Source: Escherichia coli
GTDB taxonomy: Bacteria > Pseudomonadota > Gammaproteobacteria > Enterobacterales > Enterobacteriaceae
Direction: 5' to 3' (one strand)
Assembly: GCF_003334355.1 (NCBI RefSeq)
Contig: NZ_QOWP01000111.1
DNA length: 377 nucleotides
Below, piece after piece: positions 1-377 of the stretch (the first letter of the stretch is position 1; the number at the start of each line of letters is the position of its first letter). Both the position numbers and the translations under genes were made by a program. The notes beneath the pieces were generated by a model, which searched no databases, had not been told where the DNA came from, and worked only from the letters and a program-made list of their open reading frames with translations.

Positions 1-377
1 GCATACAGCCGGGCAGTGACGTCATCGTCTGCGCGGAAATGGACGAACAGTGGGGATACGTCGGGGCTAAATCGCGCCAGCGCTGGCTGTTTTACGCGTA
101 TGACAGGCTCCGGAAGACGGTTGTTGCGCACGTATTCGGTGAACGCACTATGGCGACGCTGGGGCGTCTTATGAGCCTGCTGTCACCCTTTGACGTGGTG
201 ATATGGATGACGGATGGCTGGCCGCTGTATGAATCCCGCCTGAAGGGAAAGCTGCACGTAATCAGCAAGCGATATACGCAGCGAATTGAGCGGCATAACC
301 TGAATCTGAGGCAGCACCTGGCACGGCTGGGACGGAAGTCGCTGTCGTTCTCAAAATCGGTGGAGCTGCATGACAAA
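1..377 (+). mobile_element. IS1-family insertion sequence, internal fragment covering roughly the distal half of the element; no terminal inverted repeats inside the window
   Basis: The full window is near-identical at nucleotide level to my recollection of IS1 (insB region). The element is oriented so that the transposase reads left to right on the + strand. The right inverted repeat should lie roughly 50 bp beyond the window end, and the insA gene with the A-run frameshift site should lie upstream of position 1. Confidence 0.9.
3..377 (+). CDS. insB: IS1 transposase InsB / C-terminal part of the InsAB' fusion transposase; partial, truncated by the window at both the 5' and 3' ends
   Basis: Frame +3 is open across the entire window (125 codons, no stop). 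My own translation is [125 protein letters not shown]. From memory this matches the IS1 InsB protein almost residue for residue, and the nucleotide sequence is near-identical to the canonical 768-bp IS1. The first in-window ATG (39-41) is an internal Met, not the start. The start and the stop (expected a few codons past position 377) lie outside the window. Confidence 0.93.

Follow-up and report, generated by a model that had tools for sequence, protein, structure and literature searches.

Catalogues of the IS1 isoforms of Escherichia coli K-12 and of R plasmids go back decades. IS1 makes its transposase, InsAB', through a -1 frameshift at an A6C site that joins insA to insB', and transposition then proceeds by DDE catalysis. 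Papers routinely use the isoform names IS1R, IS1A and IS1X2; IS1R is the usual name, in ISfinder nomenclature, for the sequence type of the IS1 in plasmid R100. Four IS1 types are cited for K-12 (PMC12428005), and IS1A and IS1E are known to transpose in that strain (PMC12428005).

The window, by which we mean the whole 377-nucleotide stretch of E. coli DNA that was analyzed, is an internal segment of IS1 that corresponds on its plus strand (positions 1-377) to IS1 positions 338-714 of 768. Frame 3 of this strand is open without interruption across the 377 bases, with a translation that ends in ...SVELHDK; it is the insB frame and codes for most of the catalytic domain of the InsAB' transposase. 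The window protein matches Pfam PF03400 (DDE_Tnp_IS1) with E=5e-71 over model positions 1-119 of 131, and it matches NCBIfam NF033558 ("IS1 family transposase") with 137 bits, compared to a curated cut-off of 100. An ungapped, base-by-base comparison with the IS1 of plasmid R100 (NC_002134.1; L001:1501-1877) gave 377 identical positions out of 377. The coordinates of the features discussed below are collected in Table 1. The minus strand carries a 94-codon open reading frame with a TTG start at window positions 92-376, antisense to insB, and nothing points to its being a gene.

Table 1. Features of the 377-nucleotide window, in window coordinates; catalytic residues are predicted.
Feature	Position	Strand	Basis or correspondence
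insB / InsAB' catalytic-domain segment of IS1	1..377	+	R100 IS1 identity, PF03400, NF033558
GAC, predicted first catalytic Asp (D14), strand beta1	42..44	+	Invariant in alignment A1, 27/30 in the other alignment
GGA TAC (Gly-Tyr), synonymous isoform-diagnostic sites 56 and 59	54..59	+	IS1 positions 393, 396
AGG (Arg), single nonsynonymous isoform site, InsB residue 65	105..107	+	IS1 position 444
GAT, predicted second catalytic Asp (D71), motif MTDGW, just after beta4	213..215	+	Invariant in A1; model
GAG, predicted catalytic Glu (E96), motif IERHN, long helix 89-108	288..290	+	Near-invariant in A1; model

We compared the window base by base with R100 IS1 and with the six IS1 copies annotated in E. 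coli K-12 MG1655; because sequences were compared and no statistical pattern was at issue, a test against chance does not apply. R100 IS1 shows no difference from the window. K-12 IS1A and IS1E, which are identical to each other, show three (window/IS1A,E: A/C at 56, C/T at 59 and G/T at 107), reading GGC TAT and AGT (Ser). IS1B and IS1C depart from the window at one base (367 T>A, Leu>Gln), as does IS1D (294 C>T, His>Tyr), and IS1F departs at 41 of the 377, with an internal stop among its differences. The diagnostic IS1 positions 393, 396, 444, 631 and 704 correspond to window positions 56, 59, 107, 294 and 367; the bases there are A, C, G, C and T, and all five match the R100 type. Judged by this comparison of sequences, the window is of the R100-type (IS1R) isoform for the segment IS1 338-714. 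With high confidence, then, we regard it as part of a standard R100-type IS1, and the bases that had drawn attention at 54-59 and 105-107 as the known polymorphism between the IS1R/B/C/D isoforms and IS1A/E.

The R100 and K-12 copies share an element length of 768 bp, GGTGATGCTGCCAACTTACTGAT-type ends and the AAAAAAC motif at IS1 307. Seven positions distinguish R100 IS1 from IS1A over their whole length. Relative to IS1A/E, the full-length differences number 9 for IS1B/C, 9 for IS1D and 73 for IS1F, in agreement with published mismatch counts of 9, 9 and 73 (PMC12428005). The isoform-diagnostic IS1 positions 50, 127, 262, 298, 301 and 304 fall upstream of window base 1. At the last three of these (L001:1461-1467), R100 IS1 and IS1B/C/D differ from IS1A/E; the cluster lies shortly before the AAAAAAC frameshift site and alters residues 17-19 of the InsB frame (PPF versus TSL). 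These differences might influence frameshifting or the C terminus of InsA.

The original prediction had read Gly-Tyr (GGA TAC) at 54-59 and Arg (AGG) at 105-107 in the context YAYD-R-LRK, and both readings are borne out directly and by the frame 3 translation. The reference with which it compared the window, having GGC TAT and AGT (Ser), exists and was given accurately: it is K-12 IS1A/IS1E, which shows exactly these bases and differs from the window only at 56, 59 and 107. The predicted codon effects, two synonymous and one an Arg/Ser exchange, proved right when set against IS1A/E. An alignment to reference isoforms had been proposed, with the proviso that a common isoform might turn out 100% identical over 1-377 and its own reference to be a different one; R100 IS1 is such an isoform, and that reference is therefore simply another isoform, a benign outcome. 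The alignments to reference copies likewise support the view that this is ordinary isoform variation of low interest.

The Arg/Ser residue is, by arithmetic, residue 130 of InsAB', numbered on the 232-residue transposase (length as given in PMC12428005) that is encoded by the annotated 698-base frameshifted coding sequence of R100. A 50%-identity library of 1.84 billion representative proteins yielded 1,986 IS1-family relatives, and aligned representatives of the family at 42-69% identity show R, K, H, P, S, T, Q or M in this column. An AlphaFold2 model built from the family alignment (pLDDT, 80.5; pTM, 0.72) has the order b1(7-20)-b2(22-34)-turn(35-38)-b3(39-46)-a1-b4(64-70)-a2-b5-a3(89-108), which is RNase-H-like, and Foldseek matches the model to the catalytic cores of retroviral integrase, TnsB and ISCth4 with a probability of 1.0 and E values from 3e-4. 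Conservation, the predicted fold and arithmetic place D14, D71 and E96 as the putative catalytic triad; in the model these conserved D, D and E residues occupy the canonical places of the RNase-H-like fold, and a catalytic role is predicted for them. The Arg/Ser site is window residue 35, with which the b2-b3 hairpin turn begins in the model, and this turn is probably surface exposed and away from the predicted catalytic residues.

Copies of the window are widespread, with BLAST matches in 4,967 of 5,426 complete E. coli genomes. For 19 of 60 evenly spaced matching E. coli records, about a third, the best place is a 100% copy of the whole window. Exact copies are also present in R100, in a plasmid of Salmonella Typhi CT18 and in a few phage records, for example, RCS47 and a P1 fragment. 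At least 5,000 plasmid records contain one as well, with Escherichia, Klebsiella, Enterobacter, Salmonella, Citrobacter and Shigella among their genera. The top E. coli match, NZ_CP030152.1 at 963398-963792, consists of two BLAST pieces that span 395 bases for the 377-base query (721 bits), which suggests that this IS1 copy has a small internal duplication or insertion.

Whole-window BLAST identity bands are unable to separate the alleles, and allele counts in the 5,426 complete genomes were instead made with 30-base queries centered on the variants, such that each 28-base megablast seed must span the variant base or bases. AGG was found at a minimum of 37,268 places in at least 4,017 genomes, with at least 54 in the richest genome, and AGT at 16,616 places or more in at least 2,782 genomes (at least 45 in one genome). 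For the synonymous sites, GGATAC occurs at no fewer than 20,219 places in at least 3,291 genomes and GGCTAT at no fewer than 34,048 places in at least 3,934 genomes, with at least 45 and at least 53 copies, respectively, in a single genome. Both states at each site are thus very common and neither allele is rare in E. coli genomes; among the matches listed, AGG outnumbers AGT about twofold. The K-12 IS1A/E sequence, called the IS1 "consensus" in recent K-12 papers (PMC12428005), carries the Ser allele, which is derived and in the minority.

Could the Arg/Ser exchange nevertheless matter for function? In K-12 BW25113, IS1A/E give nearly all transposition events and IS1B, IS1C and IS1D are almost immobile (2025, PMC12428005); only IS1A/E are regularly mobile, with IS1F also among the nearly immobile copies, and the cause is stated to be unexplained (2025, PMC12428005; PMC12903888). 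The mobile copies are of the Ser type and the nearly immobile IS1B/C/D are of the Arg type, sharing the window state at all three sites, which makes it conceivable that the residue influences activity: Ser at InsAB' 130 might raise activity or cis-preference, or Arg might lower it, and the mobility of the isoforms would differ accordingly. If true, the Arg allele of the window would mark a lower-activity transposase that spreads mainly by way of plasmids and composite transposons. A crippled Arg element is, however, hard to square with an allele that is the commoner of the two, reaches at least 54 copies in one genome and is carried on thousands of plasmids. Clinical isolates with IS1R inserted into nfsA have, furthermore, been reported (PMC10569738), and the residue itself lies at a position that varies across the IS1 family, in a predicted hairpin turn.

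The IS1B/C/D copies also have more suspicious changes of their own. The Leu>Gln change of IS1B/C (367 T>A) and the His>Tyr change of IS1D (294 C>T), the latter in IERHN one residue past the predicted catalytic Glu, are private to those copies and absent from the window, and both are candidate causes of the near-immobility reported in PMC12428005. Outside the window, IS1B/C/D share further changes at IS1 127 and at IS1 298/301/304, upstream of the A6C site at 307. On balance, we consider it unlikely that the exchange is functionally important in this way, and there is correspondingly only a slight chance that Arg/Ser at InsAB' 130 is one determinant of the contrast between IS1A/E mobility and IS1B/C/D near-immobility in K-12. 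Since the position is a variable turn and both alleles reach tens of copies per genome, we consider the Arg/Ser polymorphism most probably neutral or close to it.

K-12 IS1F and four to five other diverged E. coli copies (L008-L012; 89-95% identical to the window) bear on the direction of change. All carry AGG (Arg), and at 54-59 they have GGC or GGT followed by TAC. IS1F and other IS1 copies of about 90% identity are thus like the window in AGG at 105-107 and TAC at 57-59, whereas at 54-56 IS1F has GGC and the window GGA. GGATAC is found in IS1R/B/C/D and GGCTAT in IS1A/E, and among the copies compared AGT (Ser) is confined to those of the IS1A/E type; these include L013, a frameshifted copy that is 97.9% identical to the window and has GGCTAT together with AGT. 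Because the diverged copies all have AGG and this codon outnumbers AGT about two to one, Arg, which is the majority state, is ancestral as well, and Ser is the derived state of IS1A/E. The nonsynonymous change therefore belongs to the IS1A/E reference and not to the window, and the original prediction, which had framed AGG (Arg) as the change, had the direction reversed.

The three sites are incompletely linked across E. coli genomes. Because GGCTAT (at least 34,048 places) far exceeds AGT (at least 16,616), the combination of GGC-TAT and AGG must be common as a third haplotype; by subtraction it would occupy about 17,000 places among the matches listed. An example is L007 (NZ_CP025895.1, 473-1240), which differs from IS1A at IS1 262, 444 and 486. 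Such incomplete linkage might be taken as a sign that the window haplotype is a recombinant, a gene-conversion mosaic of IS1 isoforms with no simple lineage. The three common haplotypes nevertheless fit a stepwise tree, and recombination is not required. The simplest history would begin at an ancestral GGC-TAC-AGG. The lineage of the window (R100, IS1B/C/D) would then have taken a single synonymous step, C>A at 56, and a second lineage would have changed C>T at 59 to give the common intermediate GGC-TAT-AGG, from which IS1A/E would have arisen by G>T at 107, exchanging Arg for Ser. With a stepwise tree that suffices, and with a window that matches one established isoform along its full 377 bases, we reject the mosaic as very improbable. 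Errors of sequencing or assembly, for which nothing speaks, are excluded for practical purposes as the source of the three differences: thousands of independent identical copies, exact over 377 of 377 bases, occur in R100, on plasmids of several genera (at least 5,000 records), in phages such as RCS47 and in about a third of the matching E. coli records.

In the preferred reading, that of an ordinary R100-type segment, the three flagged bases are fixed differences that set the IS1R/B/C/D group apart from K-12 IS1A/E. Of these, two are synonymous third-position changes and the third exchanges Arg and Ser at a variable turn, and both forms would encode working transposases that use the usual IS1 route. 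The result matters little beyond confirming the window as a standard segment of an extremely widespread element. Its by-products are modest: the IS1A/E "consensus" has a derived minority Ser, and the GGC-TAT plus AGG haplotype appears to be very common.

Among the named copies, IS1A/IS1E are identical to the window at 374 of 377 bases, with frame and protein domain alike; of the three differences, those at 56 and 59 are synonymous, and that at 107 gives Arg in the window versus Ser in IS1A/E. IS1B/IS1C and IS1D are each identical at 376 of 377 and share the window state at 54-59 and 105-107. R100 IS1 has GGATAC, AGG, C at window position 294 and T at 367, all as in the window. These isoform differences are already known, at the level of textbooks, and the finding is an ordinary one.
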